From UHGV virus genome UHGV-0201016: a stretch of DNA of 14,600 nt. One strand, 5' to 3'. This DNA comes from a virus. Shown piece after piece: positions 1-14,371 of the stretch (its first letter is position 1; every line of letters begins with the position of its first letter). A model generated the notes under the pieces. The model saw only the letters and a list, made by a program, of their open reading frames with translations, searched no databases and was not told the origin of the DNA. The position numbers were made by a program, and so were the translations under genes.

Positions 1-946
1 ACGGTAGTTTGTCTGCCGCAGTGGCAAGGCCTGCCAGTGCGGTCAGTGTGGCGTCGGCAGGTTGTTTTCCATTGGCAAGGTCATATACAGCCTTCACGGC
101 TTTTGGTGTGGCAGCCTGCGTTTCTGACGTGCTGTTAGTGGCGCTGCTGAGCTGGACAAGGCCTTTTCGCGCTGTGGTCGCGTCCTGTGCGGTATATTTC
201 CCGTTAGCAAGGTCATATGCTGTCTTTACCGCCTTTGGCGTTGCCGCAAGCGTTTCAGAATCGCTGTTGGTGGCGCTACTGAGCTGGACAAGACCTTTTC
301 GCGCTGTGGTCGCGTCCTGTGCAGTATATTTCCCGTTAGCAAGGTCATACGCGACCTTTACCGCTCTCGGCGTTGCGGCCAGTGTTTCAGACGTGCTGTT
401 GGTTGCGCTGCTTAACTGAGTAAAACCTTTTGCGGTCAGCGATGCATCCGGGTGTCGTCGTGACTGTTCGTGTTCTGAGATTTTGTCATCCACATATTTA
501 CGGGTCGCCAGTACCACCGACGGGTCGATTTTCAGCGTGATGGCTTCGGTATTCGAGACAACCAGAATCATGCGGATAGTCTGGGTACGACCACTGCCTT
601 CCTGCAACTGCGGTTTGTACGTTTCCGGGCAGTTCGCCACCGCAATGAGTACGCCTTCATCATCATAAAGCCCAATCTCACGGATCCAGAATCCTCCCTC
701 GTTTTCAGGGATGATTTGCTCCGCAATAATCTGGCTCTGATTGTTAGGGTCAACACTCAGAAGATTCAGCGGTGCAATGCGTTTCTGGTTAATCAGTTTT
801 GTCTGTGCCGGGTCTGGTGTCGGTAATACACCATTCGCATCACCAACGGCCATTTGCGTCAGATTCAGCTTACTGCCGAGCATCGTCGCGTTAGCCAGTC
901 GTGCTGCGCCCTGATTAGTCAGAATGGCGTAGTATTTCACTGTCAT
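1..946 (-). CDS. H: Phage tail fibre protein, N-terminal 315 codons (P2 gpH-like); 3' end lies beyond the window start
   Basis: ATG at 946-944 overlaps the TGA stop of the upstream gene (ATGA). Hand translation of the minus strand is open for all 315 codons down to position 1 (MTVKYYAILTNQGAARLANATMLGSKLNLTQMAVGDANGVLPTPDPAQTKL...EHEQSRRHPDASLTAKGFTQLSSATNSTSETLAATP...). It is absent from the ORF track because there is no in-window stop. Confidence 0.85.
   Translation of the reverse strand, partial: MTVKYYAILTNQGAARLANATMLGSKLNLTQMAVGDANGVLPTPDPAQTKLINQKRIAPLNLLSVDPNNQSQIIAEQIIPENEGGFWIREIGLYDDEGVLIAVANCPETYKPQLQEGSGRTQTIRMILVVSNTEAITLKIDPSVVLATRKYVDDKISEHEQSRRHPDASLTAKGFTQLSSATNSTSETLAATPRAVKVAYDLANGKYTAQDATTARKGLVQLSSATNSDSETLAATPKAVKTAYDLANGKYTAQDATTARKGLVQLSSATNSTSETQAATPKAVKAVYDLANGKQPADATLTALAGLATAADKLP
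60..425 (-). repeat. About three tandem copies of a 132-bp (44-codon) in-frame repeat inside the tail fibre gene
   Basis: Copies at about 66-197, 198-329 and 330-425 are near-identical on direct comparison. On the minus strand they encode repeats of LSSATNS(T/D)SETLAATP(K/R)AVKxAYDLANGKYTAQDATTARKGLVQ; on the plus strand they produce the spurious repetitive ORF 9-419. Confidence 0.8.
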
Positions 947-1554
947 GCGTTTACTCTCAGGTTATCAATTAAATGAATGACCGAGGCCGGGAAATAATCC
1001 CCTCCGACAATAATGGCCTCCGGGGTGTAGGGATAAACCGTCAGGGCGTCACCGTGATAGCATCCCGTTCCGGCAAAAATGTTGCCGGTTGTACTTAAAC
1101 TGATAGCCAGTCCCGTCAGATGGCGGCTCGCCGGTTTTGCATCAGCAACGAGACGTTCCAGCTCCAGATACATTTCTTCGGTAATACCCTGCTCAAGCAC
1201 GCCAACAACGATACGGAACGTCCCCGGCTCCTCGTTGAGCTGCCACCACTCCCTCACTTCAATCAGATAGCCGAGCGGCTCCACAACACGCCGGATTGCG
1301 CCGACAGTACCCTTATGACAGTGGATGAAATAGGCATCGCGGATAACGGCGCGTTTTGTCGCTTCCGGCCACTTTTCATCCCACCTGTCGACCGAAAACG
1401 CCCACGCCAGCCACGGCAGCAGATTTGCCGGACAGGTGTCCGGGTTCCACAGTTCACGAATACTGACCGGCGTTTTTTCAATTTCCGCACAGGCTTTTGC
1501 GGCGGCGACTTCAAGCGGTGATGAGCCGGTCGGCAGCAGTCGCGAATCACTCAT
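943..1554 (-). CDS. I: Phage tail/baseplate protein, P2 gpI-like (203 aa)
   Basis: Complete ORF; GGAGG lies 6 nt upstream of the ATG at 1554; stop overlaps the tail-fibre start; position immediately upstream of H as in P2. Family assignment is from recalled similarity. Confidence 0.75.
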   Translation of the reverse strand: MSDSRLLPTGSSPLEVAAAKACAEIEKTPVSIRELWNPDTCPANLLPWLAWAFSVDRWDEKWPEATKRAVIRDAYFIHCHKGTVGAIRRVVEPLGYLIEVREWWQLNEEPGTFRIVVGVLEQGITEEMYLELERLVADAKPASRHLTGLAISLSTTGNIFAGTGCYHGDALTVYPYTPEAIIVGGDYFPASVIHLIDNLRVNA

Positions 1555-1674
1555 CCGAGCCTCCGGTCACGACGTGGTATTCGGTACAGAAAGACGCCTG
1601 CGTACTGTTGAGCACGATACCCGTTCTGGTCGGGTGAACTGTTCAACCGGGGACGCGCCAGCGCCGCCGAACGT

Positions 1675-2514
1675 GTGGAAATCGACGTCAGTCATAACGC
1701 CCTTGCCGGTGGTCTTCTCTGTGCGGACGGCCAGTGGCGGCAGATTGTCACCATTGAGGACGCCCTGAAAGGCGGCTGCACACTGTTCGACATTGAGCAG
1801 CTCAAACGTGAAAACAGCGCCGACGATTTTAAAAACCTGTTCATGTGTGAATTTGTTGACGACAAGGCGTCGGTGTTCCCGTTCGAGGAGCTGCAACGCT
1901 GCATGGTCGACACGCTGGAAGAATGGGAAGACTATGCGCCGTTTGCCGCGAATCCGTTCGGCTCCCGCCCGGTATGGATTGGTTACGACCCGTCACACCG
2001 TGGCGACAGTGCCGGATGCGTGGTGCTGGCACCGCCGGTGGTGGCCGGTGGCAAATTCAGAATACTTGAGCGTCACCAGTGGAAAGGCATGGACTTTGCC
2101 ACCCAGGCGGAATCCATCCGCAAACTCACCGAAAAATATAACGTTGAATACATCGGTATTGATGCCACCGGCCTCGGTGTCGGCGTGTTCCAGCTCGTGC
2201 GCTCGTTCTATCCCGCCGCGCGCGACATCCGCTACACGCCGGAAATGAAAACCGCAATGGTGCTCAAGGCAAAAGACGTTATCCGCCGTGGCTGTCTGGA
2301 ATATGACGTCAGCGCCACCGACATCACCAGCTCGTTTATGGCTATCCGCAAGACCATGACCAGCAGCGGACGCAGCGCCACCTATGAGGCCAGCCGCAGC
2401 GAGGAAGCCAGCCACGCCGACCTCGCCTGGGCGACCATGCACGCCCTGTTAAATGAGCCACTCACCGCCGGTATCAGCACCCCGCTGACATCCACCATTC
2501 TGGAGTTTTACTGA
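1675..2514 (+). pseudogene. P: Terminase large (ATPase/nuclease) subunit, P2 gpP-like, 3' fragment only; 5' part deleted
   Basis: The frame opens only after the stop at 1609-1611 and the first start codon is GTG at 1675, giving at most ~300 codons against a recalled ~590 for gpP. The fragment contains a nuclease-like region (PVWIGYDPSHRGDSAGCVV). Its stop overlaps the portal start (TGATG, 2512-2516). The upstream space is occupied by gpI on the other strand. Confidence 0.7.
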
Positions 2515-3548
2515 TGAGCAAGAAAAAAGGGAAAACACCGCAACCTGCGGCAAAAACAATGACCGCCAGCGCCCCGAAAATGGAGGCATTCACCTTTGGT
2601 GAGCCGGTGCCGGTACTCGACCGCCGTGACATTCTGGATTACGTCGAGTGCATCAGTAACGGCAGATGGTATGAGCCGCCGGTCAGCTTTACCGGTCTGG
2701 CAAAAAGCCTGCGTGCTGCCGTGCATCACAGCTCACCGATTTACGTTAAACGTAATATTCTGGCTTCAACGTTTATCCCGCACCCGTTGCTTTCCCAGCA
2801 GGATTTCAGCCGCTTTGTGCTGGATTTTCTGGTGTTCGGTAATGCGTTTCTGGAAAAGCGCTACAGCACCACCGGTAAGGTCATCAGACTGGAAACCTCA
2901 CCGGCAAAATATACCCGTCGTGGCGTGGAAGAGGATGTTTACTGGTGGGTGCCGTCCTTCAACGAGCCGGCAGCCTTCGCGCCCGGCTCCGTGTTTCACC
3001 TGCTGGAGCCCGATATTAATCAGGAGCTGTACGGCCTGCCGGAATATCTCAGCGCCCTTAACTCTGCCTGGCTGAATGAATCGGCCACGCTGTTCCGCCG
3101 CAAGTATTACGAAAACGGCGCACATGCCGGATACATCATGTACGTCACCGATGCCGTGCAGGATCGCAACGATATCGAAATGCTTCGCGAAAACATGGTT
3201 AAGTCGAAAGGCCGCAACAACTTTAAAAACCTGTTTCTCTATGCCCCGCAGGGGAAAGCCGACGGCATTAAAATTATCCCGCTCAGTGAAGTGGCAACGA
3301 AGGACGATTTTTTTAATATCAAAAAAGCCAGCGCCGCTGACCTGCTGGACGCGCACCGCATCCCCTTTCAGTTGATGGGAGGCAAGCCGGAGAACGTCGG
3401 GTCGCTGGGTGATATTGAGAAAGTGGCAAAGGTCTTTGTCCGCAATGAGCTTATCCCGCTACAGGACAGGATCCGCGAGATAAACGGCTGGCTCGGTCAG
3501 GAGGTCATCCGCTTTAAAAACTACTCACTGGACACTGACAACGGCTGA
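2514..3548 (+). CDS. Q: Phage portal (capsid vertex) protein, P2 gpQ-like (344 aa)
   Basis: Complete ORF translationally coupled to the terminase fragment; basic Lys-rich N-terminus; length and position (last gene before cos, about 170 bp from the cohesive-end sequence) match P2 Q. Confidence 0.85.
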   Translation: MSKKKGKTPQPAAKTMTASAPKMEAFTFGEPVPVLDRRDILDYVECISNGRWYEPPVSFTGLAKSLRAAVHHSSPIYVKRNILASTFIPHPLLSQQDFSRFVLDFLVFGNAFLEKRYSTTGKVIRLETSPAKYTRRGVEEDVYWWVPSFNEPAAFAPGSVFHLLEPDINQELYGLPEYLSALNSAWLNESATLFRRKYYENGAHAGYIMYVTDAVQDRNDIEMLRENMVKSKGRNNFKNLFLYAPQGKADGIKIIPLSEVATKDDFFNIKKASAADLLDAHRIPFQLMGGKPENVGSLGDIEKVAKVFVRNELIPLQDRIREINGWLGQEVIRFKNYSLDTDNG

Positions 3549-3553
3549 ACATC

Positions 3554-3575
3554 GCCGCCTGCGGGCGGCTTTTTT
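3554..3575 (+). terminator. Rho-independent terminator downstream of the portal gene
   Basis: GCCGCC (3554-3559), loop TGCG, GGCGGC (3564-3569), followed by TTTTTT (3570-3575). Confidence 0.55.
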
Positions 3576-3717
3576 ACGCCCCCGTCATCACGCCCTCACA
3601 CGCTCATCACCGCACAAAAAATCCCGCAGACACACCAACGCCCAGCAGGCCAAGTAAACGCCTTCACGACGCGCTCAGACGCTGAAAAAATAAAATCAGC
3701 ACCACCGCCAGCGCGCA

Positions 3718-3736
3718 GTGCTTTCCCCGCCTCGCC
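3718..3736. other. cos cohesive-end sequence, P2 type (19 nt)
   Basis: gtgctttccccgcctcgcc is the reverse complement of GGCGAGGCGGGGAAAGCAC, the 19-nt P2 cohesive end as I recall it. It lies between the portal gene and the cargo operon, as in P2 (Q - cos - old). Confidence 0.7.
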
Positions 3737-3865
3737 CGCCCGCTTCATGGGTCGATTTTAATGCAGTTGCATTTTTATCGAAAGTCTCGTCTCACAAAAC
3801 CCTCCCTTCACTAAATAGACTCATTATCCACATGCAATCTAATTCAAAAAAATGCATGTATAGTA

Positions 3866-5836
3866 TTAAAGGTCATCAATTAAACCTAAAGGCAAACCGT
3901 CCTCACCAACCGAGCTATAATGAGCGATAATATTCGAAAGTTCACCAGTAGAAAACGAATTAGGCAAATCATTATCAACTAATATAATCTGGCACGGAAC
4001 ATTTTTTCTTTCTGCTTTTTGAACTGTATTCAATAGTTGTTCATAAATATTTTGATACTTCATCGGATCTGACATTCCCTCAAGGTCATCCTCGACTGCA
4101 AGAGTTTCTTTTGAATATTTTTCCTTGGTCTGTTTCCCTAAATATTTGCCAACCGTATCAAATATCAAAAGTAAAGGATGGTTAACATTATGATCTATTG
4201 CATAATCAAGAATAGACAAAAGATACCCAATAGAAGAAATAGTTCTCAAACCTCCGGATGTTATTTTAAAATATTCTTTTTCTCTTATAACAGGAATGTA
4301 ATAGCTTTCAGAGATTTTTATCCCCGTTCTGTTTTTGATATTAATACCCTTCAAATACTGACTAAATCTATCACCCAAACCTTGTAAAATGCCCTCCATG
4401 CTAGGTGCGTTTTTCTTTAACGCCTCCAAGCGTTCAGTTAATGCTTCAATATCTTTTCTCAGTACCTGATACTTTTCAAGCAGTTCCTCTTGCTGGTTTC
4501 TAACCTTCAAATCTTTTACTAACTGCTCCCTAACCTTCTCATTTTTTGATATCTCTTTAATATAAAAATCTCTCTGAGTCAAGAATGGTGTAATCATTGA
4601 CTGGCTTTCTTCGTCAATCAATTCTCTCAACTCGTGAAGTCGTTCATCTAATTCTTTTTTATAACCTGATTCTTTTTTTAATTTAAATGACATTTCTGAG
4701 ATCATGTCATTAATATTTCGTCTACGTCGACTAAGTGAATTCAACTCTTCATTAAGATCTTTTTCTGATGAAATTTCAAATGGAAAATCAGAATCATCTA
4801 TTTTAATGTGGCTATCACAGATTGGACAGGAAAATACTTCCTTATCCAATACACCAATGCGAGAATTTGCTGTTTTAATCGCTTTGAGTTTTTCAATATC
4901 ATTATCATAGTCATTTTTTAACCGCGAATATTTATCAATCTTATCCTCAAGCGCACTAATATTTAATATGCACTCTTTGTATTTAAGCGAAATAAAATTG
5001 TGAGCATCTTTAAATTCTGTATACTGTATGGAATCCGCTTTCATATTTTTATCGAGAGCAGACAAACCTGCAACAAGTTCTTCTAAAACAAGATCTATCC
5101 TATTAATCTCATCATCAATTGATTCAATTGTTTCATAGTCTGTATCGCGAAGAAATTCAGATATTATCTGATACTTCCTATTTAATTCCGTTACTAAACT
5201 ACTTTTTGCAGATATTTCACCTTGGAGTCTGGCGATGCTTTCATCCAACACATTGAACATGTATTTAAAAACTTCTTTCGTAAATGCGTAGCGGGACCAA
5301 TCACCCAATCGCAAGAAAGATTTACTACCAATATCATCCTGACTTACATAAACAAATTTATATATATTTCTAAAACTTAACCTGCGCATCTGTGAATGCG
5401 CTTTAGAAGGAGACACCTTAATTTCAATCTTTGGGAAATTAAGACTATCAAGTAAAAACTCCGAAAAAACACCATCAACATTTGATAATGGGCTATAATT
5501 AGGAGCGTATTTTTTCGGAAAATGTTTATGTAAATCATCAAACTTACAACGATAAACTTCTATTGCTTTTTTATGATCATAGATATCTCTTACGATTGTG
5601 AATACAGTATCATTGATCACTACTTCAAGAGCAGCATAGTTTACTGATGTTTTTATTTCATCTGCTAAATCTATAGAGCTAGCACCTAAAAGATAATTAA
5701 TAAACTCCAGAATGCTTGACTTACCTGTGTCAGAGTCTCCGTAGATAACATTGAGACCTTTATAAAAAGTAGTGACGTAGTTTTTACGAACACCAACAAG
5801 AATCAAACTATTGATATTGAGATATGATTTCATCAT
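3866..5836 (-). CDS. SMC/Rad50/RecN-like ABC ATPase with long central coiled coil and a CxxC motif (LmuB-like position)
   Basis: 656-aa ORF. Walker A GDSDTGKS (aa 33-40, nt 5717-5740); about 300 aa of heptad-like charged sequence; CPIC at aa 337-340 (nt 4817-4828) near the middle of that region; ABC-signature-like ITSGGLRT (about aa 523-530); Walker-B-like HPLLLIFDT (Asp560 followed by Thr, not Glu). N-terminus resembles RecN/RecF/SMC heads. Confidence 0.75.
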   Translation of the reverse strand: MMKSYLNINSLILVGVRKNYVTTFYKGLNVIYGDSDTGKSSILEFINYLLGASSIDLADEIKTSVNYAALEVVINDTVFTIVRDIYDHKKAIEVYRCKFDDLHKHFPKKYAPNYSPLSNVDGVFSEFLLDSLNFPKIEIKVSPSKAHSQMRRLSFRNIYKFVYVSQDDIGSKSFLRLGDWSRYAFTKEVFKYMFNVLDESIARLQGEISAKSSLVTELNRKYQIISEFLRDTDYETIESIDDEINRIDLVLEELVAGLSALDKNMKADSIQYTEFKDAHNFISLKYKECILNISALEDKIDKYSRLKNDYDNDIEKLKAIKTANSRIGVLDKEVFSCPICDSHIKIDDSDFPFEISSEKDLNEELNSLSRRRRNINDMISEMSFKLKKESGYKKELDERLHELRELIDEESQSMITPFLTQRDFYIKEISKNEKVREQLVKDLKVRNQQEELLEKYQVLRKDIEALTERLEALKKNAPSMEGILQGLGDRFSQYLKGINIKNRTGIKISESYYIPVIREKEYFKITSGGLRTISSIGYLLSILDYAIDHNVNHPLLLIFDTVGKYLGKQTKEKYSKETLAVEDDLEGMSDPMKYQNIYEQLLNTVQKAERKNVPCQIILVDNDLPNSFSTGELSNIIAHYSSVGEDGLPLGLIDDL

Positions 5837-6345
5837 TTCTCCTTGAAAACTTGATTTATAACAGAGTTTAACTTAGAGGTAGGCAATGCTTGTAGCGGTA
5901 ACAATGCTTCGGATAGTCGTTTTATTTCTTTAAAATATCCATCAGTCAATGAGCTAGCAAATTCCTTACCTTTTTCAGATAAAAATAATTTAACACTCTC
6001 ATTATTTTTTTTCTCAGCTGAGAGCAATCCCCGCAATGACATAATTTTTATAAGATATTTCACTTTGGAATTGTCGAATAAGATATCTACATTTGATGAA
6101 AAACTCTTTATTGTATAAGTTAACTGGGACTCGACACAAGCAGGCTTTTTCCCCGAAATTGTAAGAGCATAATCAATTTTTGATGGGTTTTTTATCAGAT
6201 ACATAAAAATTTGTATTTTATTAATATCTAATGATAACACTCCTTTTTTGCTATGAGATAATATAGATATAGCAATGGCAAGCATAGCAAAATTCAAGCT
6301 ATACTCTTCATCAAGAGGAATATACGGCAAGTTATTTTTCTTCAT
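5833..6345 (-). CDS. Small protein of unknown function (170 aa), middle gene of the three-gene operon (LmuC-like position)
   Basis: Complete ORF. Its start overlaps the stop of the hydrolase gene by 14 nt, and its TGA overlaps the ATG of the ATPase gene (ATGA at 5833-5836). No recognisable motif. Confidence 0.55.
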   Translation of the reverse strand: MKKNNLPYIPLDEEYSLNFAMLAIAISILSHSKKGVLSLDINKIQIFMYLIKNPSKIDYALTISGKKPACVESQLTYTIKSFSSNVDILFDNSKVKYLIKIMSLRGLLSAEKKNNESVKLFLSEKGKEFASSLTDGYFKEIKRLSEALLPLQALPTSKLNSVINQVFKEK

Positions 6346-7555
6346 GATTACCTCGCCGTAATTGCTCCAAAGTTTCTACGCTGGTTTCAGATGACCAGAC
6401 AATATCTCTATCATTTTTGTTAGCCAGTTGATGCAACATTCCTTTCTTATGTATCGTTTCTAAACTTTTTATAAGAGAATCTAACGACGACTTATCCTCT
6501 TGGGCTATTCGTCTATGAACAGCAGCAATAAATTTATCTGGGGAAATTGAATTCGCGATATATTGCTCATACTCTTCCTGGTAAATCTCCCTTATTTTAG
6601 AATACAAATGACCAAGTAGTTTCCTATCGTAATCACTCGTAAAAATATTTCTCGCAAGCTCAGCATTATAATAATATTCCTTTGCATGCATAGCGATATC
6701 CTGATGTATATCTGCGACAATCATTTTTAAGACGAAATACTCATTATCATATTGTTTCTCATCAGAAAAACGCTCAACACATATCTTCTTGGGTGCTTCT
6801 AAATTTATCTGCTGAATAAATTGCTTTACCGCAACAAACACTGTAGACGAGCTGTTTTCGGGCTTGCAAATTGAGCTATGCCCTTCATTAACTGCAATTG
6901 AGTTATTTCGTTCACTATCCATCGGTAATGCGCTTTTTTTATCAACTATAGTGTCATGAGAACCATAAACATATCTAGTGATAGGAAGTTTTTTGCTACA
7001 ATTTATCCAGCGCCTATTCAATGTATCAGTCGCTTCACTTAACAATCCAAGATCTACTAACTGAGCATTTGAAGATACCATTGAAGTTATATTCGCCAAT
7101 TTAGCACCAAAGTGAGGGACTGCTAACGAAATGAATCCAATTATATTAGATTGTTCCTCATGCTCAACTTTTTTTAGAATTAGATTTTTTGATATTAACC
7201 CCCCCATACTATGGGCAATTATTATAATTCGAGAGTAATCACTTAACGTTACCCTAATCTCAGTATACAATAACTCAGCTATTTCATCAGTTGGTAAATT
7301 TCTCTCTAACTTATTTTTCTTAGAGAAAATACGAGCCAATAATCCTGACGTTTTAGCATACGTTTGTGTAAATTTGGTGAAATAGTTGAAACATGCAATA
7401 TCAAATACATTGCCAATGTCTTCATCTTCTGCTAATAGTTTTGGAAATGAAGTTTCTTTATTAAAGTTCCATGTTTCCAAACCACCATTTAATCCATGTA
7501 CAAATAGTATCAGGCTATCTTTTTTCTCGTGGCTTATCCATTCAACCATGCTCAT
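6332..7555 (-). CDS. Alpha/beta-hydrolase (lipase/esterase-type) fusion protein with a C-terminal all-helical domain of unknown function; candidate effector of the defence operon (LmuA-like position)
   Basis: 407-aa ORF. LILFVHGLNGG (HG oxyanion region); nucleophile elbow IIIIAHSMGGL with the Ser codon at 7208-7210; candidate acid GSHDTIVD; candidate His NEGHSSICK. Residues ~250-407 are charged and helical with no catalytic motif I recognise. AT-rich codon usage. Its last 14 nt overlap the next gene. Confidence 0.7.
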   Translation of the reverse strand: MSMVEWISHEKKDSLILFVHGLNGGLETWNFNKETSFPKLLAEDEDIGNVFDIACFNYFTKFTQTYAKTSGLLARIFSKKNKLERNLPTDEIAELLYTEIRVTLSDYSRIIIIAHSMGGLISKNLILKKVEHEEQSNIIGFISLAVPHFGAKLANITSMVSSNAQLVDLGLLSEATDTLNRRWINCSKKLPITRYVYGSHDTIVDKKSALPMDSERNNSIAVNEGHSSICKPENSSSTVFVAVKQFIQQINLEAPKKICVERFSDEKQYDNEYFVLKMIVADIHQDIAMHAKEYYYNAELARNIFTSDYDRKLLGHLYSKIREIYQEEYEQYIANSISPDKFIAAVHRRIAQEDKSSLDSLIKSLETIHKKGMLHQLANKNDRDIVWSSETSVETLEQLRRGNHEEK

Positions 7556-7603
7556 ATGCTTTTCTGCCGTGTATAAAAATTAAACCATAACAAACAATTC
7601 CTC

Positions 7604-7620
7604 AACAATAACATATTGTT
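7604..7620. promoter_or_regulatory. Inverted repeat AACAATA-N3-TATTGTT in the AT-rich intergenic region upstream of the cargo operon
   Basis: Perfect 7-bp arms with a 3-bp spacer, 50-65 bp upstream of the operon start (7555) and just downstream of the A stop; all-AT stem, so more likely a protein-binding site than a terminator. Confidence 0.3.
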
Positions 7621-7644
7621 ACCCCGTTTGACCGTTCTTTTCAA

Positions 7645-9927
7645 CTACCACTCACGCTGTCTGTCAAAAAAGTCGATATCGTTATCAAATTTAAAACGCT
7701 TATGCCCAAAATCCAAAACAGCTCCGCGAGCGAGAGCTTCAAGCTCCCAATAACTAGCCTGAATGTCACTTTGTGCAAGAAGAACCTTAATTTTCGGGAT
7801 AGTCTTTCTCTCCTGTCTTGTCAACCGGGCGGATGGGGCAGGAAAGTAGCTTCGACCATTGAAAGGGGTAAAGCTCTGCTGTGAACGATTACTGCATTTC
7901 AGTTCATTACTCAATAAGTCTCTAAGTACCTTCATAATGCCTGGCTCGGTCCAACTTAGAATCCCTTCATCTATTAAATTTAACACCGCTGCAGCATGCT
8001 CAGTCGGTGTGGGTGCCGGTAACGAAGTATCACCACCGTTGAGCTTTCCACAGTTATTGACAGGACTCCGAGGCGCGGCGATGCCGCTTTTTAAAGTCAA
8101 AGGCTCAACGACCGGAACTTTCGGCACAATGCGCCAGTCCGTCGTTCTGGTGATATGAATATGACGCGCGCCGAGATGCGGCGCGTAAATGCCGACCACT
8201 CTCTCGACTTCTTCCTCGTACTCGTTAACTTCATCCGACGGGCTACGGGCGACTCTGACAGTCTGACAATCGCGCGGAACATTTGCCCCACCCTGCGCGC
8301 TGATATACAACGCAAAATCACCACTGTCTGCGGCGGCGCGTGCAGCCTCGACGCGCTCGTCAAACTCATCAGCAATGCTGACGCCGCGCGGCAATTTGCG
8401 TAGTTCACGGTAAGCCCCCATTGTCGGCAGGCCAACCGTTTTAAATTGCGGGATGCGCCACGTTGACGCCCATGCGGTAACAGCCGCTGCAGTGTCTTTC
8501 AGCGGCCTGCCGGTGTCGTTATCGAGCTGACCATCCAGTGCATAGCCGTCGATGTTTTTTGAAATGTATTTCGCGATATATCCCGCAGCACCGCCCCGGT
8601 TAAGGTGTTTTGCCTGAAAACGGTTTCGCGCGGCTCCTCTTTCGTCGCCATCCTCTTTGAGCGCATAGCGACGCATGATTTCGATAATCTGGTTACGCTG
8701 GCGTGAATTACAAAAAAGCATCATATGCCAGTGCGGCGTTCCGTCGTGGTGTGGCTCGACGACACGCAAACCGTAGACCTGTAAATCATTATCCTTGAAT
8801 GCCGTGCGCATCAGGCTCCAGATACGGCAGAGATAACGCTGCGCATCCTTTGGATTAAATGCCTCATCGTTCCAGCCGTGATTAAGCTGCACGGTTTTAC
8901 TTTCGCCTTTTCCTACCTGACGTGTCGGGTGATACTTTGACGGCGCGGTCAGCGTGATAAACATCCCCACATCACCCTCTGCAGCGGCGTAACGCTCAAT
9001 ACCGGCAATGGTGTTCATCAGCTCCATCCGGCGAATTTCAGGATTAGAAATACTGCCCATCACCTTACTGATAAGGTCGATGCGCTCGCCGGTTTCCCTG
9101 TTTTCAAGGTCACACGATTTAAGAAATTCCAGATTTGCCTGGCGGCGCGCACGCACATCACGAATGGCGTGTTTACTGGCATAAGGAGAACGGTCTTTAT
9201 TGACCTCCCCGACAGCTATTAGTAACGCTTCATGCCAGCGCATACGCTGGCCTTTAAGCTGATGAGTCCACCACTCATCGTTAAACAGACGGGCAATGGC
9301 AGAATATGCCTGCCTCGTGGTCATCTGCCCTTTACGGTATTTTTTCCAGTAGAGCGGGGAAATATTGAAAGCACGTGCAGCGCCAGCAACATGACCATAG
9401 AGGTGAGCCTGCGCCTCATCCGTAAACAGCGATTCTTTTTCGCCATGCGCATCCACCCAGGCATCGCTGAGTTCCTCATACATCATGAAAAGCTGCGATG
9501 AGATACGGGCAGCAAACTTTTTCAGCTCCTTGTCATTCATTCCCGGCAGGCGCGCATAGTGGTCACGCTCTGCCAGAAACAGTAACGACGCGTCGGTGTT
9601 CATTTCATGGCGCTGATTCACACGCTCAATGCGCGGCCATAAACGACGCTGAAAAGTGGATGTGAGGAAATAAAACCCGTGCACCGGGCTTTTATTGCGC
9701 CGGATGTAGTCATAGCGTGAAGTAAACAGCGAGCGCAAAAAGTAAGGCAGGCGGTTAATCGTGGATAAAACACCTTGCACCTGATGCATCTCGTCACGTG
9801 TAAGGGGTCTTTCGCGCCCGACGGCCTCGCGTGGCGCGTTCCATGCATAAGCACCGGTAAACGCCTTACCGGTGCCTGCAGCAAATGCTGACGGAGGGAC
9901 AAAACGCCCGGAGGCTTTAACGGCCAT
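7645..9927 (-). CDS. A: Replication initiation protein, P2 gpA-like HUH rolling-circle endonuclease (761 aa from ATG at 9927)
   Basis: HUH motif PHWHMMLF and tyrosine motif GYIAKYISK are visible. The track ORF begins at TTG 9969; the first ATG is at 9927, giving 761 aa, the recalled length of P2 A. Confidence 0.85.
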   Translation of the reverse strand: MAVKASGRFVPPSAFAAGTGKAFTGAYAWNAPREAVGRERPLTRDEMHQVQGVLSTINRLPYFLRSLFTSRYDYIRRNKSPVHGFYFLTSTFQRRLWPRIERVNQRHEMNTDASLLFLAERDHYARLPGMNDKELKKFAARISSQLFMMYEELSDAWVDAHGEKESLFTDEAQAHLYGHVAGAARAFNISPLYWKKYRKGQMTTRQAYSAIARLFNDEWWTHQLKGQRMRWHEALLIAVGEVNKDRSPYASKHAIRDVRARRQANLEFLKSCDLENRETGERIDLISKVMGSISNPEIRRMELMNTIAGIERYAAAEGDVGMFITLTAPSKYHPTRQVGKGESKTVQLNHGWNDEAFNPKDAQRYLCRIWSLMRTAFKDNDLQVYGLRVVEPHHDGTPHWHMMLFCNSRQRNQIIEIMRRYALKEDGDERGAARNRFQAKHLNRGGAAGYIAKYISKNIDGYALDGQLDNDTGRPLKDTAAAVTAWASTWRIPQFKTVGLPTMGAYRELRKLPRGVSIADEFDERVEAARAAADSGDFALYISAQGGANVPRDCQTVRVARSPSDEVNEYEEEVERVVGIYAPHLGARHIHITRTTDWRIVPKVPVVEPLTLKSGIAAPRSPVNNCGKLNGGDTSLPAPTPTEHAAAVLNLIDEGILSWTEPGIMKVLRDLLSNELKCSNRSQQSFTPFNGRSYFPAPSARLTRQERKTIPKIKVLLAQSDIQASYWELEALARGAVLDFGHKRFKFDNDIDFFDRQREW

Positions 9928-10192
9928 ATGAGCCAAAAGCCTCTGAACAACGCCTGCTGAGTTGCTCAACCTGCGCGTTTAAATCAGCAAAAGACTTTGC
10001 GCTTCCGGTCAGAATATCGTGATGCATCAGGCCGGAAACGAGCTGGCTTAATTTCGGATAATAACCAACCACCGCCAGCCATTCCTGACCGGCGTTTTTA
10101 CCGCTTTCCGCTCTCTTTTTCTCGTGGAGAATAAACTGAAAGCTGTCACTGGTAACGACATAACGTTCGCCAATTTCAATACGAATACTCAT
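9917..10192 (-). CDS. Hypothetical early protein (P2 orf83-like position)
   Basis: 91-aa ORF in the chain of start/stop-overlapping genes between B and A; no motif recognised. Confidence 0.55.
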   Translation of the reverse strand: MSIRIEIGERYVVTSDSFQFILHEKKRAESGKNAGQEWLAVVGYYPKLSQLVSGLMHHDILTGSAKSFADLNAQVEQLSRRCSEAFGSYGR

Positions 10193-10413
10193 GCCGTTCT
10201 CCGGTAATGTTTGTTTTTTGCTTCAAAGACTGACTGGCAGGAAACACAACGCGTGGCTGACGGATAAGCCGCACGACGGGCAGCAGGTATTGGCGCGTCA
10301 CACTCTTCGCAAACCAGCGCAGAAGCACCGCAATGTTTTACCCTTGCCGCGTTAATCTGACGCTCCAGTAATTCAGCCTGTTGTTCCTGAATAAAATCTA
10401 CGTTGTCCGGCAT
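10189..10413 (-). CDS. TraR/DksA-family C4 zinc-finger protein (P2 orf82-like position)
   Basis: 74 aa with CEEC-x17-CVSC (Cys-x2-Cys-x17-Cys-x2-Cys) and a preceding helical segment, as in F-plasmid TraR. Confidence 0.75.
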   Translation of the reverse strand: MPDNVDFIQEQQAELLERQINAARVKHCGASALVCEECDAPIPAARRAAYPSATRCVSCQSVFEAKNKHYRRTA

Positions 10414-10718
10414 TACCAGCTCCTTTTGTCGTTAAGTTTTTTAAATTCATCAGCGCAATAGCTAGCAATTTCTGTCGTTAATTTCGTCAGTTCATCCACG
10501 GAGGAGATTTGCTTGTGAAATACAGCGCGTTTAACAAGTAAATTGACCACATCAGACAGGAGATTTAATTCGTTCTGATAAATCGCGATAACAGACTCAG
10601 TTATTTCGCGTTTTTCTTTATCAAGACCAAGTTGAATAAGAGATAAATCGCCATTTTTCATAACAGCGATTTTTAAGGCGTTATTCAGTAATACAACTGG
10701 ATGAGAACAGGACATCAA
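10413..10718 (-). CDS. Hypothetical early protein (P2 orf81-like position)
   Basis: 101-aa ORF; stop overlaps the next start; no motif recognised. Confidence 0.55.
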
Positions 10719-10939
10719 AGCACCTCCCCGCGAGATAATCCGATATTGTGAAATTTTTCCGACTCCTGACTGAGCAGCTCGACTATCTCCACGCGGGATA
10801 ACTCCGCCTTTGTGATGTGGCGAATCATGGCGTCAAGATGAGAAGAAAAGCGCGTCGCTGCGTCGGCCTGTGCTTCGGTTCTGGCCTGTTGCAGCAGTAA
10901 TGCGTATTTACCGCACTGATTTTCAGAAACTGTATGCAT
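10715..10939 (-). CDS. Hypothetical early protein (P2 orf80-like position)
   Basis: 74-aa ORF with ATG at 10939 and 4-nt overlap with the downstream gene. Confidence 0.55.
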
Positions 10940-11002
10940 GACTTTCTCCAGGCAAAAAGAAGCCCCGCACGATTAAGTGCGTTAAAAACTCTGGTTAATT
11001 AC

Positions 11003-11503
11003 TTAATGCAGATATTGCTCTGGTTTTACCGACGTCAGAATTGTCGGTGCATACTCAAACAGACTGAATAATTCACGTAACGCACGGAATAAAGCATCAC
11101 GCCAGTAACATGACTCTTCATTAATTCGCCAGTATGGCTGGTTGAATTCTTTTTCAGTCAATCCGGCATGCATAAATAAAGTACGGCGCTGACTGACAGT
11201 TAAAAAGCTAATATATGCATACTCACTTGCACCGACCTGACGGCGTTTTGAGAATGCCCCACGCAGTTCATCAATTGCACAAACCAGCCGTTCACGTTCG
11301 ACGTCGTTCATTTCTTCAAAACGCATCGTTGCGTGACGCTGTTTTAACTGCGCATGGAAGCAAACCGTTAGCCGTTCACGTTCCATCATCTGATTATAAT
11401 AATCGCATGTATCCTGCCAGCGAGGGACGGCCAGATGCTTACCAATTATCCGGCGCATAGCTGCTGGCTGTTTTTCAACAAGATTGAGCGTCATCACTGT
11501 CAT
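11003..11503 (-). CDS. B: Replication protein, P2 gpB-like (166 aa)
   Basis: Complete 166-aa ORF in the position and with the length of P2 B, between the orf78-like ORF and the small ORF cluster. Confidence 0.7.
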   Translation of the reverse strand: MTVMTLNLVEKQPAAMRRIIGKHLAVPRWQDTCDYYNQMMERERLTVCFHAQLKQRHATMRFEEMNDVERERLVCAIDELRGAFSKRRQVGASEYAYISFLTVSQRRTLFMHAGLTEKEFNQPYWRINEESCYWRDALFRALRELFSLFEYAPTILTSVKPEQYLH

Positions 11504-11736
11504 TTCCAGACCCTCCGGCTTTTCAGAAAGGTCAGAGCCTTATTTAACGGACTCTGTTTTTTGGTGCGGATAATGATTCCCTTACGCCCCTTACCGTGGG
11601 TAATGGTGAAGTCAATCGCCCTTGGGCTTTCGTTACGCAATAACTGAGCAATACAACGAGGCTCGTTCATCCTTTCCACCTTAAGCCGCACGGCCATGTC
11701 TTGATTTGCTGTAACTAATGCGATTTTTCCAGTCAT
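11500..11736 (-). CDS. Hypothetical protein (P2 orf78-like), start uncertain
   Basis: The track ORF starts at 11760; the internal Met at 11736 gives 78 aa and less overlap with the upstream gene; 4-nt overlap with the B start. Confidence 0.45.
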   Translation of the reverse strand: MTGKIALVTANQDMAVRLKVERMNEPRCIAQLLRNESPRAIDFTITHGKGRKGIIIRTKKQSPLNKALTFLKSRRVWK

Positions 11737-12037
11737 GCCATTCTGTCGGAGCTTCATCAACTAGCTGGGCTGCGTACTTGTCCCACTCACGGCGATTAAT
11801 CCATAACTCAGCATGACCGCCCGGCTTTAATGGGTCCGTCATATAAAAGGCTGGTAACTTGCCTGCTTTCGCCATTTCAGCAACAGCGCGAGGCGTCTTA
11901 CCGATGTAAAGAGCAAAACCCTCTTTCGAGAGCAAATCCGACGGTGCGGCTGCAAGTTTGATGTCACATTTTTTACTTTTTGTGAGATCAGATACTTTTT
12001 CTCCAACATCGTTATTCATTTCTGATCCAATACTCAT
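11681..12037 (-). CDS. cox: Cox-like excisionase / early-promoter regulator (HTH), start uncertain
   Basis: HTH-like segment FALYIGKTPRAVAEMAKAGKLPAFYMTDP resembles the P2 Cox / 186 Apl family. The track start is TTG at 12067; ATG at 12037 has GAGG 8 nt upstream. Confidence 0.6.
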   Translation of the reverse strand: MSIGSEMNNDVGEKVSDLTKSKKCDIKLAAAPSDLLSKEGFALYIGKTPRAVAEMAKAGKLPAFYMTDPLKPGGHAELWINRREWDKYAAQLVDEAPTEWHDWKNRISYSKSRHGRAA

Positions 12038-12141
12038 TTTGATATCCTCAACTTTGGTGCCATTCAACCAGAGCTATTTGAAGCCGCTCTGCGTTGTTCT
12101 GGTGTGTCGCATACAACATAAATTACGAGATACGACAATTC
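12038..12141. promoter_or_regulatory. Immunity switch region between divergent cox-like and C-repressor genes (expected site of early and repressor promoters and operators)
   Basis: 104-bp intergenic region between divergent regulators. Only weak sigma70-like hexamers (for example TTGTTC-N17-CATAAA toward C) could be picked out by eye; no element is resolved. Confidence 0.35.
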
Positions 12142-12453
12142 ATGTCAAATACACAAATCACATCTCAAGCAGAGAAACTCGCACTTATTCGGGAATCAGA
12201 AAGAATGACAAGGAAGCAAGTTGCTGAATTAACTGGAATTAACTACAACACCTATGCTGGATATGAGCAGGGAAAAGTAAAGATGTCTTTTGACGCAGGT
12301 ATGAAATTTTTCAAGCCAGAAAGATTTCGCAAGTACCGTGACTGGTTCATGTTTGATGAAACTGATCCCGCTGGCGGACAAATAGCCCCGGCGCTCGCGC
12401 ACATTGGGCAAGACTCAACAACCTTGCACCACTCAGACCAAAAGACTGGCTGA
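12142..12453 (+). CDS. C: Immunity repressor, P2 C-type (Xre-like HTH), 103 aa
   Basis: HTH segment RKQVAELTGINYNTYAGYEQGK. The track start at 12094 is TTG; the first ATG (12142) gives about 100 aa, as for P2 C. It lies upstream of and co-oriented with int, as in P2. Confidence 0.75.
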   Translation: MSNTQITSQAEKLALIRESERMTRKQVAELTGINYNTYAGYEQGKVKMSFDAGMKFFKPERFRKYRDWFMFDETDPAGGQIAPALAHIGQDSTTLHHSDQKTG

Positions 12454-12546
12454 CGATTTATTCAGCATATGTGTGCAGTAAATGTACGAAAGAAAATTGC
12501 ATTAATTTTCAAGTAGTAGAAGTAAACAGCGTCATCGGAGGGCTTT

Positions 12547-13542
12547 ATGTCTATTAAAAAGCTCGATGATGGTCGTTATGAAGTGGACGTCAGACCGCAG
12601 GGTGCAGATGGAAAACGTATCAGGCGGAAATTTAAAACTAAAGGTGAAGCTCAAGCATTCGAACGTCATGTGCTGGTTAACTACCACAACAAAGAGTGGC
12701 TGGAGAAGCCAGCCGACCGCCGAACTCTTACAGAGTTGTTAGGCAGATGGTGGATATATCACGGAAAATCACATGAGCGTGGAAATATTGAACGGGGGCG
12801 TTTGACGACAATAATCGCCAAATTTGCAGAAATGGGAGTGTCCAGAGCTGACCAGTTAACAAAGAAAACGATAACTGATTATCGAGTTGTAATGATGAAC
12901 GATGGTCTAAAACCAGCCAGCGTAAATCGGCATCTGGCAATAATGAGCGGGATGTTCACCAAGTTAATTGACGCCGGTGAATACCACTCTCACAACCCGT
13001 TCCGTGAGGTTAAGCGGTTACGTGAAGCTGTTACAGAAATGGCTTTTTTGTCCAGTGAAGAGATTACGCGGCTGTTATCCATGCTTGATGGTGATGAGTT
13101 AAATGCAACTCTGGTCTGCCTTTCTACTGGTGGACGCTGGAGTGAAGTGTCTAATTTGAAAGCTGAACACATCATTAACCAGATGGTTACGTTTATGAAA
13201 ACTAAAAACGGAAAGCGCAGGACAATTCCCGTTTCGCAGGACCTGATTAAAAGGATCAAGACCAAAAATTCAGGCAGGCTTTTTAATGCCAGTTACTACA
13301 AAGTGCGTAACGCTCTCAGGGAAGTAAAACCCGATTTACCTGACGGACAAGCAGTACATGTTTTGAGGCATACATTTGCCACACATTTTATAATGAATGG
13401 AGGTAACATAATCACATTGCAGCGCATCCTGGGTCATTCTAACATTCAGCAAACTATGACCTACGCACACTTTGCACCGGATTTCTTACAAGATGCTGTG
13501 ACTCTTAACCCGGTGTCAGGAATGTCCATAATGCGTCCATAA
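12547..13542 (+). CDS. int: Tyrosine integrase, P2 Int family (331 aa)
   Basis: GGAGGG lies 5 nt upstream of the ATG. Catalytic-box motifs HVLRHTFATHF and TMTYAHF are present; the N-terminus MSIKKLDDGRYEVDVRP is typical of P2/186 integrases. Confidence 0.9.
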   Translation: MSIKKLDDGRYEVDVRPQGADGKRIRRKFKTKGEAQAFERHVLVNYHNKEWLEKPADRRTLTELLGRWWIYHGKSHERGNIERGRLTTIIAKFAEMGVSRADQLTKKTITDYRVVMMNDGLKPASVNRHLAIMSGMFTKLIDAGEYHSHNPFREVKRLREAVTEMAFLSSEEITRLLSMLDGDELNATLVCLSTGGRWSEVSNLKAEHIINQMVTFMKTKNGKRRTIPVSQDLIKRIKTKNSGRLFNASYYKVRNALREVKPDLPDGQAVHVLRHTFATHFIMNGGNIITLQRILGHSNIQQTMTYAHFAPDFLQDAVTLNPVSGMSIMRP

Positions 13543-13630
13543 ACCAGAGTTAACTAGAGCCAATTGAAGCGATATGAGTAATTTAACTAATTGTAATACA
13601 ACAGAAAATACCGCTACGGCGGGGGCTACC
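13543..13630. other. attR junction region (phage/host boundary), core not resolved
   Basis: This 88-bp interval separates the int stop from the first codon with recognisable PflA homology. The P2 attP core is not present, so the element has a different site specificity. Confidence 0.35.
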
Positions 13631-14371
13631 AAGTCAGTTATTGGTCGCATTCACTCCTTTGAATCCTGTGGAACCGTAGACGGCCCAGGTATTCGCTTTA
13701 TCACCTTTTTCCAGGGCTGCCTGATGCGCTGCCTGTATTGTCATAACCGCGACACCTGGGACACGCATGGCGGTAAAGAAGTTACCGTTGAAGATTTGAT
13801 GAAGGAAGTGGTGACCTATCGCCACTTTATGAACGCTTCCGGCGGCGGCGTTACCGCATCCGGCGGTGAAGCAATCCTGCAAGCTGAGTTTGTTCGTGAC
13901 TGGTTCCGCGCCTGCAAAAAAGAAGGCATTCATACCTGTCTGGACACCAACGGTTTTGTTCGTCGTTACGATCCGGTGATTGATGAACTGCTGGAAGTAA
14001 CCGACCTGGTAATGCTCGATCTCAAACAGATGAACGACGAGATCCACCAAAATCTGGTTGGAGTTTCCAACCACCGCACGCTGGAGTTCGCTAAATATCT
14101 GGCGAACAAAAATGTGAAGGTGTGGATCCGCTACGTTGTTGTCCCAGGCTGGTCTGACGATGACGATTCAGCGCATCGCCTCGGTGAATTTACCCGTGAT
14201 ATGGGCAACGTTGAGAAAATCGAGCTTCTCCCCTACCACGAGCTGGGCAAACACAAATGGGTGGCAATGGGTGAAGAGTACAAACTCGACGGTGTTAAAC
14301 CACCGAAGAAAGAGACCATGGAACGCGTGAAAGGCATTCTTGAGCAGTACGGTCATAAGGTAATGTTCTAA
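13574..14371 (+). CDS. pflA: Pyruvate formate-lyase activating enzyme (glycyl-radical activase, radical SAM) with a 19-codon N-terminal extension; canonical start position is AAG
   Basis: CLMRCLYC radical-SAM cluster motif; residues 21-265 match E. coli PflA (246 aa, [14 protein letters not shown]...) as recalled. Codon 13631-13633 is AAG where ATG is expected, and the only in-frame start is ATG at 13574. Confidence 0.85.

Follow-up and report, generated by a model that had tools for sequence, protein, structure and literature searches.

A defective P2-type prophage at pflA of Escherichia coli with a retained Lamassu system and a recurrent deletion breakpoint in the large-terminase gene

The 14,600-nucleotide stretch of the UHGV virus genome UHGV-0201016 analyzed here (referred to as the window; positions are counted from its first letter) contains an integrated phage element that carries a predicted anti-phage system, Lamassu, next to a P2-type cohesive-end site (cos). 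We regard it as very probable that this element is an ordinary P2-type (Peduovirus) E. coli prophage from which a single deletion has taken approximately 9 to 10 kb, and that it is not a phage satellite. It is another defective P2-like prophage that retains a hotspot defence system, i.e., a representative of a kind already known, and it is a one-off deletion derivative of a common phage type which, judging by its sequence, appears to have been crippled recently. The only surprising feature is the breakpoint of the deletion in the large-terminase gene P, which recurs in other prophages.

The open reading frame (ORF) listing together with the Pfam, PHROGs and PADLOC matches gave a single coherent map in which the gene order of P2 (late genes, cos, early region and attachment site (att), as in the annotated P2 record NC_001895) was matched, with the conserved modules of P2-like prophages (Q, P, A, B, orf80-83 and I) in P2 order. 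Window positions 1618-3736 aligned with P2 2117-1 at 97.1% identity (2.1 kb), positions 7964-11684 aligned with P2 29997-26277 at 96.9% identity (3.7 kb), and positions 1118-1618 aligned with P2 12629-12129. The proteins of the retained genes (the P remnant, Q, A, B, orf78 and orf80-83) were 91 to 100% identical to those of P2. The morphogenetic and lysis module (P, O, N, M, L, X, Y, K, R, S, V, W, J and the rest) is incomplete, which makes the element a defective member of this group. The genes int, C and Cox as well as the attR core were found in the window, while attL lies beyond its left end and is placed from relatives only. No tRNA genes were found in the window, and the element is therefore not a tRNA-site island.

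The deletion between genes J and P

The deletion junction was mapped to the nucleotide, at window positions 1618/1619, by alignment to a full-length prophage (L004), and alignments to the prophages pro147 and STN0717-20 and to P2 placed it at the same position. Left of the junction, the window is collinear with the tail-fibre gene H, the tail/baseplate gene I and the last 24 codons of the baseplate gene J (a 64-nucleotide tail at 1555-1619, minus strand), and positions 1-1619 are 99.94% identical to the full-length STN0717-20 prophage. Right of the junction, the window is collinear with P from codon 293, i.e., with the 3' 298 codons of this gene (1618-2514, plus strand; Pfam Terminase_6C and the end of Terminase_6N), whose product is 100% identical to residues 293-590 of P2 gpP. 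The dinucleotide TA is the only sequence common to both sides. The missing interval amounts to 9,137 bp as compared to pro147, 10,328 bp as compared to STN0717-20 and 10,011 bp as compared to P2 (2118-12128).

By P2 annotation, the deletion took the 5' half of P, the genes O, N, M, L, X, Y and K, lysA/B/C, R, S, V and W, and most of J. The P remnant is thus left without its N-terminal 292 codons and without the P promoter. As both the P/O activator site (P2 3057-3087) and the V activator site (P2 10239-10266) fall within the deleted 2118-12128, Q, the P remnant and I-H-G are all deprived of their late promoters. Given this set of deleted genes, the element cannot make heads or capsids, cut and package DNA, build a baseplate or complete tails, or lyse the cell. 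The product of the P remnant is identical to that of P2 despite approximately 3% divergence at the DNA level; the substitutions therefore predate the loss of function, which indicates that the deletion is recent.

We propose that a P2-like prophage integrated into the 5' end of E. coli pflA, with the window representing its pflA-proximal approx. 13.6 kb, and that one internal deletion, by an illegitimate join at the 2-bp TA microhomology, linked the 24-codon remnant of J to P at codon 293. Some 9 to 10 kb were lost in this event, including the half of P that encodes the ATPase, the late promoters of P and O and the genes for the scaffold (O), the capsid (N), the small terminase (M) and head completion (L), together with X, the lysis cassette, R, S, V with its promoter, W and the greater part of J. 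The other arm was left intact, i.e., Q, cos, Lamassu at a known cos-proximal hotspot, A with its origin (ori), B, Cox, C, int and att. Homoimmune exclusion through C as well as defence through Lamassu should persist, and excision and replication would be possible in principle if the element were derepressed. Any transfer would then depend on helper late proteins that complement the defective prophage, or on an incoming P2-like phage that recombines with the element by homology and thereby rescues the cargo.

The original prediction concerned only the interval from cos to the end of the integrase arm (3718-13630), and described an element with cos at its edge and with no capsid or terminase genes. 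The absence of these genes holds inside that interval, because the interval starts at cos and the cos-to-att arm does not hold head genes in any P2 prophage. A P2 prophage is bounded by its att sites, with cos in the interior, and the element accordingly runs on to the left, through the intact portal gene Q (2514-3548, plus strand; 344 amino acids; Pfam Phage_portal; 99.1% amino acid identity to full-length P2 gpQ), the 298 codons of P, and then I and H, past the end of the window. The loss of head genes is nevertheless real; the lesion responsible lies at 1618/1619, outside the interval considered before. With the left arm taken from the 99.94%-identical STN0717-20 prophage (identity over window positions 1-1619), the size of the whole element, which had been left to be read from the other att site, is estimated as approx. 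22.2 kb, of which the stretch from the junction to attR in the window makes up 12.0 kb.

Comparison with relatives indicated that the element is derived from a widespread prophage type. The full-length P2-like prophages at the pflB/pflA site (pro147, NC_028896, and those of strains 2452 and STN0717-20) have the same gene order, the same integrase, C, Cox and att core (100% identity to strain 2452), and 97 to 99.9% DNA identity over every segment kept here, but they keep the 9.1 to 10.3 kb from J to the middle of P that this element has lost. They also differ in their cos-proximal cargo, which is Lamassu here, retron/reverse transcriptase genes in pro147, and other genes in 2452 and STN0717-20. 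The two prophages inspected at this att site, that of 2452 (among the matches listed for the int/att arrangement) and that of STN0717-20, both proved to be full length, with the former measuring 32.6 kb from core to core. The exact J-P junction, on the other hand, had no match among 5,426 complete E. coli genomes and none in IMG/VR, JGI metagenome contigs or GTDB representative genomes. As the junction was found only here, it does not mark a propagating lineage.

The retained arm, the Lamassu cargo and possible routes of transfer

The original prediction that cos is intact and that the genes for excision, replication and immunity have been kept was confirmed. The 19-nucleotide P2/P4 cohesive end GGCGAGGCGGGGAAAGCAC, which forms both ends of P2 NC_001895, occurs in one exact copy in the window (3718-3736, minus strand; 0.01 copies expected by chance), and the flanks in the surrounding cos region (3590-3766, minus strand; P2/P4 cos alignments) match the core common to P2 and P4 except for three substitutions. 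The replication initiator gene A (7645-9927, minus strand; 760 amino acids; Pfam Phage_GPA, E = 3.5e-123) is full length, with 99.5% identity to its counterpart in the full-length TOE3 prophage and 91% identity to that of P2. The ori lies within A, as had been expected; its nick region (8026-8111, with the nick near 8069) is identical to P2 at 84 of 86 positions (nick annotated at P2 29892). Also full length, on the minus strand and 95 to 100% identical to P2 are the equivalents of orf83, orf82 (DksA/TraR-like), orf81 and orf80 (9917-10939; PHROGs; 95-100% amino acid identity), gene B (11003-11503; 166 amino acids; 99.4% amino acid identity) and the orf78 equivalent (11500-11670; 98.2% amino acid identity).

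The immunity and integration genes are full length as well, and each is 100% identical to its counterpart in the full-length prophage of strain 2452. These are a Cox-family excisionase/regulator of a type other than that of P2 (11681-12037, minus strand; 118 amino acids; phrog_1831 and phrog_272, "Cox-like excisionase and repressor"; 35% identity to P2 Cox), the immunity repressor C (12142-12453, plus strand; 103 amino acids; phrog_147; 48% identity to P2 C) and a tyrosine integrase (12547-13542, plus strand; 331 amino acids; Pfam Int_N and Phage_integrase). C, int and A, as well as Lamassu, are predicted to be functional. The 13-bp att core GTCAGTTATTGGT (attR; 13633-13645, plus strand) lies in the first codons of pflA and is present as a direct repeat at the pflB-side end of the strain 2452 prophage; phage homology stops at 13645. 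The same int/att arrangement at pflA was found in 392 of the 5,426 complete E. coli genomes. The att core occupies codons 2-5 of pflA, and integration cuts pflA off from its native start codon and promoter; the phage end provides the gene, which in the window reads from 13574, with a new in-frame ATG and 20 extra codons (window 13574-13645; L005 7000-7030), and PflA in lysogens is 265 amino acids long by RefSeq annotation.

The defence cargo noted before in this arm is a complete Lamassu (ABC-3C) operon of three overlapping ORFs (3866-7555, minus strand), predicted to be an anti-phage system. It combines the SMC-like ATPase LmuB (3866-5836; PADLOC, E = 5e-235), the middle component LmuC (5833-6345; PADLOC, E = 4e-52; ABC-3C middle component 4, Pfam MC4) and the effector-bearing LmuA (6332-7555; PADLOC, E = 6e-109), which has an N-terminal alpha/beta-hydrolase (DUF676/PGAP1-like) effector domain and a C-terminal CTD8 (Pfam DUF676 and CTD8). 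The G+C content of the operon is 30 to 35%, as compared to approximately 50% in the flanks. Its location between gpA and gpQ, beside cos, is that of the cos-proximal P2 defence hotspot described by Rousset et al. 2022 (PMC9122126). Identity to P2 ends 320 nucleotides inside the 3' end of gene A, and this A tail (window 7645-7963) is 99.5% identical to A of other Lamassu-carrying prophages, which indicates that the exchanged module of the hotspot extends into the part of A that encodes the C terminus. The same Lamassu cargo was found between Q and A in 96 genomes; in the three of these that were examined, TOE3 and TW14359 among them, it sits in full-length prophages at a different att site (yegR in TOE3 and TW14359). 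As the same module occurs in prophages that differ in int, immunity region and att, module exchange is shown, and Lamassu passes between P2-like phages as a module of the cos-proximal hotspot.

We consider it quite possible, if not quite probable, that the cargo moves separately from the element by homologous recombination (marker rescue), i.e., that an incoming or co-resident P2-like phage recombines in the conserved Q-cos side and the A-B side and thereby takes up Lamassu in place of its own hotspot cargo. The flanks of the cargo are nearly identical to P2-like phages over 2.1 kb (Q, P remnant and cos; 97%) and 3.7 kb (A to B; 97%), and the yegR-site prophages of TOE3 and TW14359 share the module with this pflA-site element; in addition, quick swapping at the hotspot, and whether defective elements still join in, have been discussed previously (PMC13586616). 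This particular remnant is only a putative donor. Marker rescue is compatible with, rather than exclusive of, the explanation of the element as a defective prophage, and homologous exchange is a likelier route for the cargo than helper packaging of the element.

Packaging by a helper was what the original prediction had proposed, namely a satellite-like element that, once derepressed, would excise by its own Int and Cox, replicate by its own A, which in P2 acts in cis, and be packaged through cos by a co-resident or superinfecting P2-like helper, with spread of Lamassu as the result. We regard this explanation as unlikely, although everything that it requires of the element in cis and in trans (cos, A/ori, B, Cox, int and the att core) looks intact. 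The P2/P4 system packages any cos-bearing circular DNA, including plasmids of 4.7 to 8.7 kb that under-fill the head (PMC2231350; PMC9942202), and the head-less P2-like prophage Sp13 of E. coli O157:H7 Sakai excises, replicates and gives DNase-protected DNA, being packaged at a low level in experiments (Asadulghani et al. 2009, PMC2669165). Packaging is most efficient, however, where the size of the substrate matches the head (PMC9942202), and the estimated approx. 22 kb is twice the content of a P4-size head, for which the element is hence too big, and would fill only two thirds of a P2 head. Size was a stated proviso of the original prediction.

Other observations also argue against a satellite. 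The element has retained a portal gene, a terminase fragment and tail genes, as would a fresh deletion mutant, and its junction is a singleton in all collections searched. Homologues of sid, psu, delta, epsilon and alpha are absent; a tblastn search of the window with the P4 proteins Sid, Delta, Psu, Alpha, Epsilon, Int, cI and Orf88 as queries had no match at E ≤ 1e-3, and all early ORFs fall in P2 families (PHROGs). The element therefore does not carry the core gene set of P4-like satellites (psu, delta, sid, alpA, epsilon, alpha and a P4-type integrase; PMC8628076), and at an estimated 22.2 kb its genome does not fit the small (T=4) capsid of approx. 11.6 kb, while its cos is, as in those satellites, compatible with the P2 terminase. 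Nor does it represent what defines satellites in general, i.e., a propagating lineage without virion genes and with helper-exploiting functions. From what is known of P2 biology, the resident C would keep a homoimmune helper repressed, and a heteroimmune one would leave the repression of the element in place; given this and a Cox type unlike that of P2, derepression by a helper is unlikely. Overall, the prerequisites for mobilization and the Sp13 precedent support part of the original prediction, whereas its satellite-like part is not supported, in view of the singleton junction, the lack of hijacking genes, the size and the retained virion genes. Helper-dependent packaging appears physically possible, with no adaptation for it in the sequence, and the idea is plausible but neither new nor specific to this element.

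A recurrent breakpoint in gene P

The P-side breakpoint of the deletion, T1618 of TACCCGTTCTGG (P2 NC_001895 2117/2118), is nucleotide-identical in at least 12 other junctions (loci L008-L011, L013-L016, L018-L020, L022-L024 and L149). An exact look-up of the 279-amino acid ORF left by the truncated P gave 341 index blocks, and ten places were read. Eight of these ten were P2-like deletion remnants, located at three att sites and carrying different cargo, and in all eight the P homology begins at P2 2117/2118, as in the window, while the other breakpoint varies. Further junctions were obtained from a pattern search (a non-alanine codon before TACCCGTTCTGG) and from a second ORF look-up. The distinct left partners of all junctions are located at approx. 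P2 2646, 10280, 12129 (the window), 14351, 17606, 18402, 19400, 21296, 21682, 21978, 23191, 23742 and 24052, and thus span 22 kb of the late region. All junctions checked but one show a microhomology of 2 to 5 nucleotides (TA, TAC, TACC or TACCC in the intact relative of the left partner), which is always on the side of the P remnant; for the exception (L011), the sole available relative reads TG at the join, with 1 nucleotide shared.

Ascertainment bias was rejected as a source of this pattern. The exact-ORF look-up accepts any breakpoint in an interval of 122 nucleotides (in-frame starts at codons 271-312), yet nine of nine deletions (that of the window and the eight loci from the ORF look-up) fell on one nucleotide. 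In a neighbouring interval of 167 nucleotides, most of the genes found were frameshifted; a single deletion there ended at P2 1977, and one more junction at the hotspot was obtained. Some remnants break elsewhere (near P2 1503, 1514 and 1958). Such remnants appear to be rare among complete genomes, of which 18 of 1,632 records were without an intact copy of the region (200-nucleotide probes on each side, of which the downstream probe also picks up divergent homologues). Only full-length clusters were among the matches listed in a protein-database search with full-length gpP, and an exact look-up of the 164-amino acid sub-ORF gave no record. For the reciprocal class (a P gene that is cut off at the hotspot after its 5' half and runs into other sequence), IMG/VR gave only synonymous TAT variants and one unrelated chance match. 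Overall, the shared breakpoint points to a site-specific deletion hotspot.

Three candidate causes were tried and rejected. A secondary nick site for gpA (pseudo-ori) at the hotspot gave local alignment scores of 11 to 12 against a background mean of 12.4; the folding energy expected of a hairpin or palindrome was no better than that of shuffled sequences (z = -0.4 and -0.5); and, as regards a transposon-end model, no inverted or direct copy of the hotspot was found elsewhere in the window within 3 mismatches. Two otherwise full-length prophages show small changes within 7 nucleotides of the hotspot, i.e., an added T in CCCGTTCTGG (L012, approx. position 9950) and a lost C in GACGCC (L021, approx. 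position 5339), the latter in a metagenome contig at 1.1x coverage, where it may be a sequencing error. Two further P2 remnants, in AB104 (L002) and 1218KP (L007) at the trhP/yegR site, are of older date; they have undergone several deletions, their int genes carry IS3 insertions and A is broken. They still hold Q, cos and a defence-type cargo gene (of the SIR2 family in AB104), and their P breakpoints, near P2 1514 (AB104) and 1503 (1218KP), are off the hotspot.

It is conceivable, but in our judgment doubtful, that the deletion is one product of a site-specific, one-directional process that makes head-less, non-lytic P2-like derivatives, the smallest of which could constitute a natural class of P2-derived hitchers that depend on a helper, stabilise defence cargo and spread it from time to time. 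Such a process could begin with a nick or replication arrest at gpP codon 292/293 (5'-GACGCC/TACCCG), with the fixed DNA end restarting at TA(CCC) microhomologies of 2 to 5 nucleotides further along the late region; the repeated outcome would be derivatives in which Q, cos, the cargo for defence, A/ori, immunity and int are all retained. If a leftward nascent strand stopped exactly at T1618, at a template nick or a barrier, and restarted ahead on TA(CCC), this would explain why one end is fixed, where the microhomology lies and why the deletions all run one way. By the E. coli K-12 map and the gene orders seen here, the int side of the prophage is the first to be reached by the chromosomal fork at each of the three att sites, and the P2 rolling-circle fork from ori runs through the prophage in the same direction. 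For M13, pC194 and terB, Michel, Ehrlich and Bierne reportedly described deletions that have one end fixed at a site of replication nicking or arrest, and by analogy we hypothesize that events at T1618 may resemble these classical fixed-end deletions.

The most reduced hotspot remnants measure, from att to att, approx. 9.4 kb (L013), 11.2 kb (L016), 11.4 kb (L015) and 11.6 kb (L008). In these four, ogr (with or without a D or V fragment) is joined to the P remnant, Q, cos, cargo, A to B, cox, C and int; they are thus P4-sized and have kept the late activator gene ogr along with, as predicted, everything for excision, replication and packaging. The P4-like size may be a mere consequence of P2 architecture. 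The same ogr-D to P junction (P2 23742 joined to 2118) occurs with two different integrases and att sites, and this repetition is likely caused by the best local microhomology (TAC..CCCGTT).

Several points weigh against our interpretation of the window element as a P2-type prophage crippled by one deletion. The J-P junction comes from a single assembly; the left arm (G, the F operon, D, ogr and attL) lies beyond the window, with total size, ogr and attL taken from the 99.94%-identical relative; the function of C, Lamassu, int and A is read from intact reading frames alone; and the recurrence of the breakpoint shows that the deletion is not purely random decay. That the junction is an assembly artefact in a prophage that is really complete, as the single assembly and the absence of the junction from all collections searched might suggest, is hardly credible, since it lies in unique, non-repetitive coding sequence with 2 bp shared, where assemblers do not collapse, and since the same P-side breakpoint occurs in many independent assemblies (NCBI, ENA and Logan).

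As originally submitted, the finding matters little, as defence-keeping defective P2-like prophages, and the low-level packaging of one of them (reported in 2009), were already known. The element is, however, a clean one-step case, in which one deletion strips all host-killing and head-building functions and leaves immunity, defence, replication, integration and cos, and it is thus a convenient natural substrate for asking whether such remnants still get mobilized. If a specific nick within the terminase gene, or a barrier to replication there, lies behind the shared breakpoint, this would explain the repeated "domestication" of P2-like prophages into defence islands.

Tail genes and comparison with known systems

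The left end of the window is formed by the 5' part of the tail-fibre gene H, which runs off the window (1-946, minus strand; PHROG tail-fibre families, E = 1e-175), followed by the intact gene I (943-1554, minus strand; 203 amino acids; Pfam Tail_P2_I, E = 2e-55). H contains 2.6 copies of a 132-bp tandem repeat (75-412; 83% matches), which correspond to repeated 44-amino acid units of the fibre shaft. In relatives, opposed partial or duplicated tail-fibre-assembly genes were seen downstream of H (L004 17378-17888; L145 73-1090), which suggests that some P2-like prophages have an invertible or shuffled host-range segment.

When compared to satellite P4, the element has in common the 19-nucleotide cohesive end and a cos core of approx. 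55 bp, and P4 is likewise integrative and carries defence cargo beside cos (PMC9122126). P4 measures approx. 11.6 kb and replicates by alpha/ori/crr, whereas the element, at approx. 22 kb, has the A/ori of P2; and while P4-like satellites are a separate lineage with little homology to phages (PMC8628076), the element is phage-derived, by a recent deletion. The closer counterpart among head-less elements is Sp13, which also has no head and packaging genes and has kept integration, regulation and replication. Sp13 lacks the portal gene and most tail genes (table in PMC2669165), whereas portal gene Q, I and H are kept here; Sp13 also carries a P4 epsilon-like gene that may explain its inducibility (PMC2669165), while the element, which is known from sequence alone, has none. 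Finally, defective P2-like prophages with conserved defence genes ("UGRs") have been described previously (PMC13586616). Decay in these prophages follows no fixed pattern and the replication gene is often a pseudogene, whereas the element described here shows a single clean deletion and an intact replication gene A.

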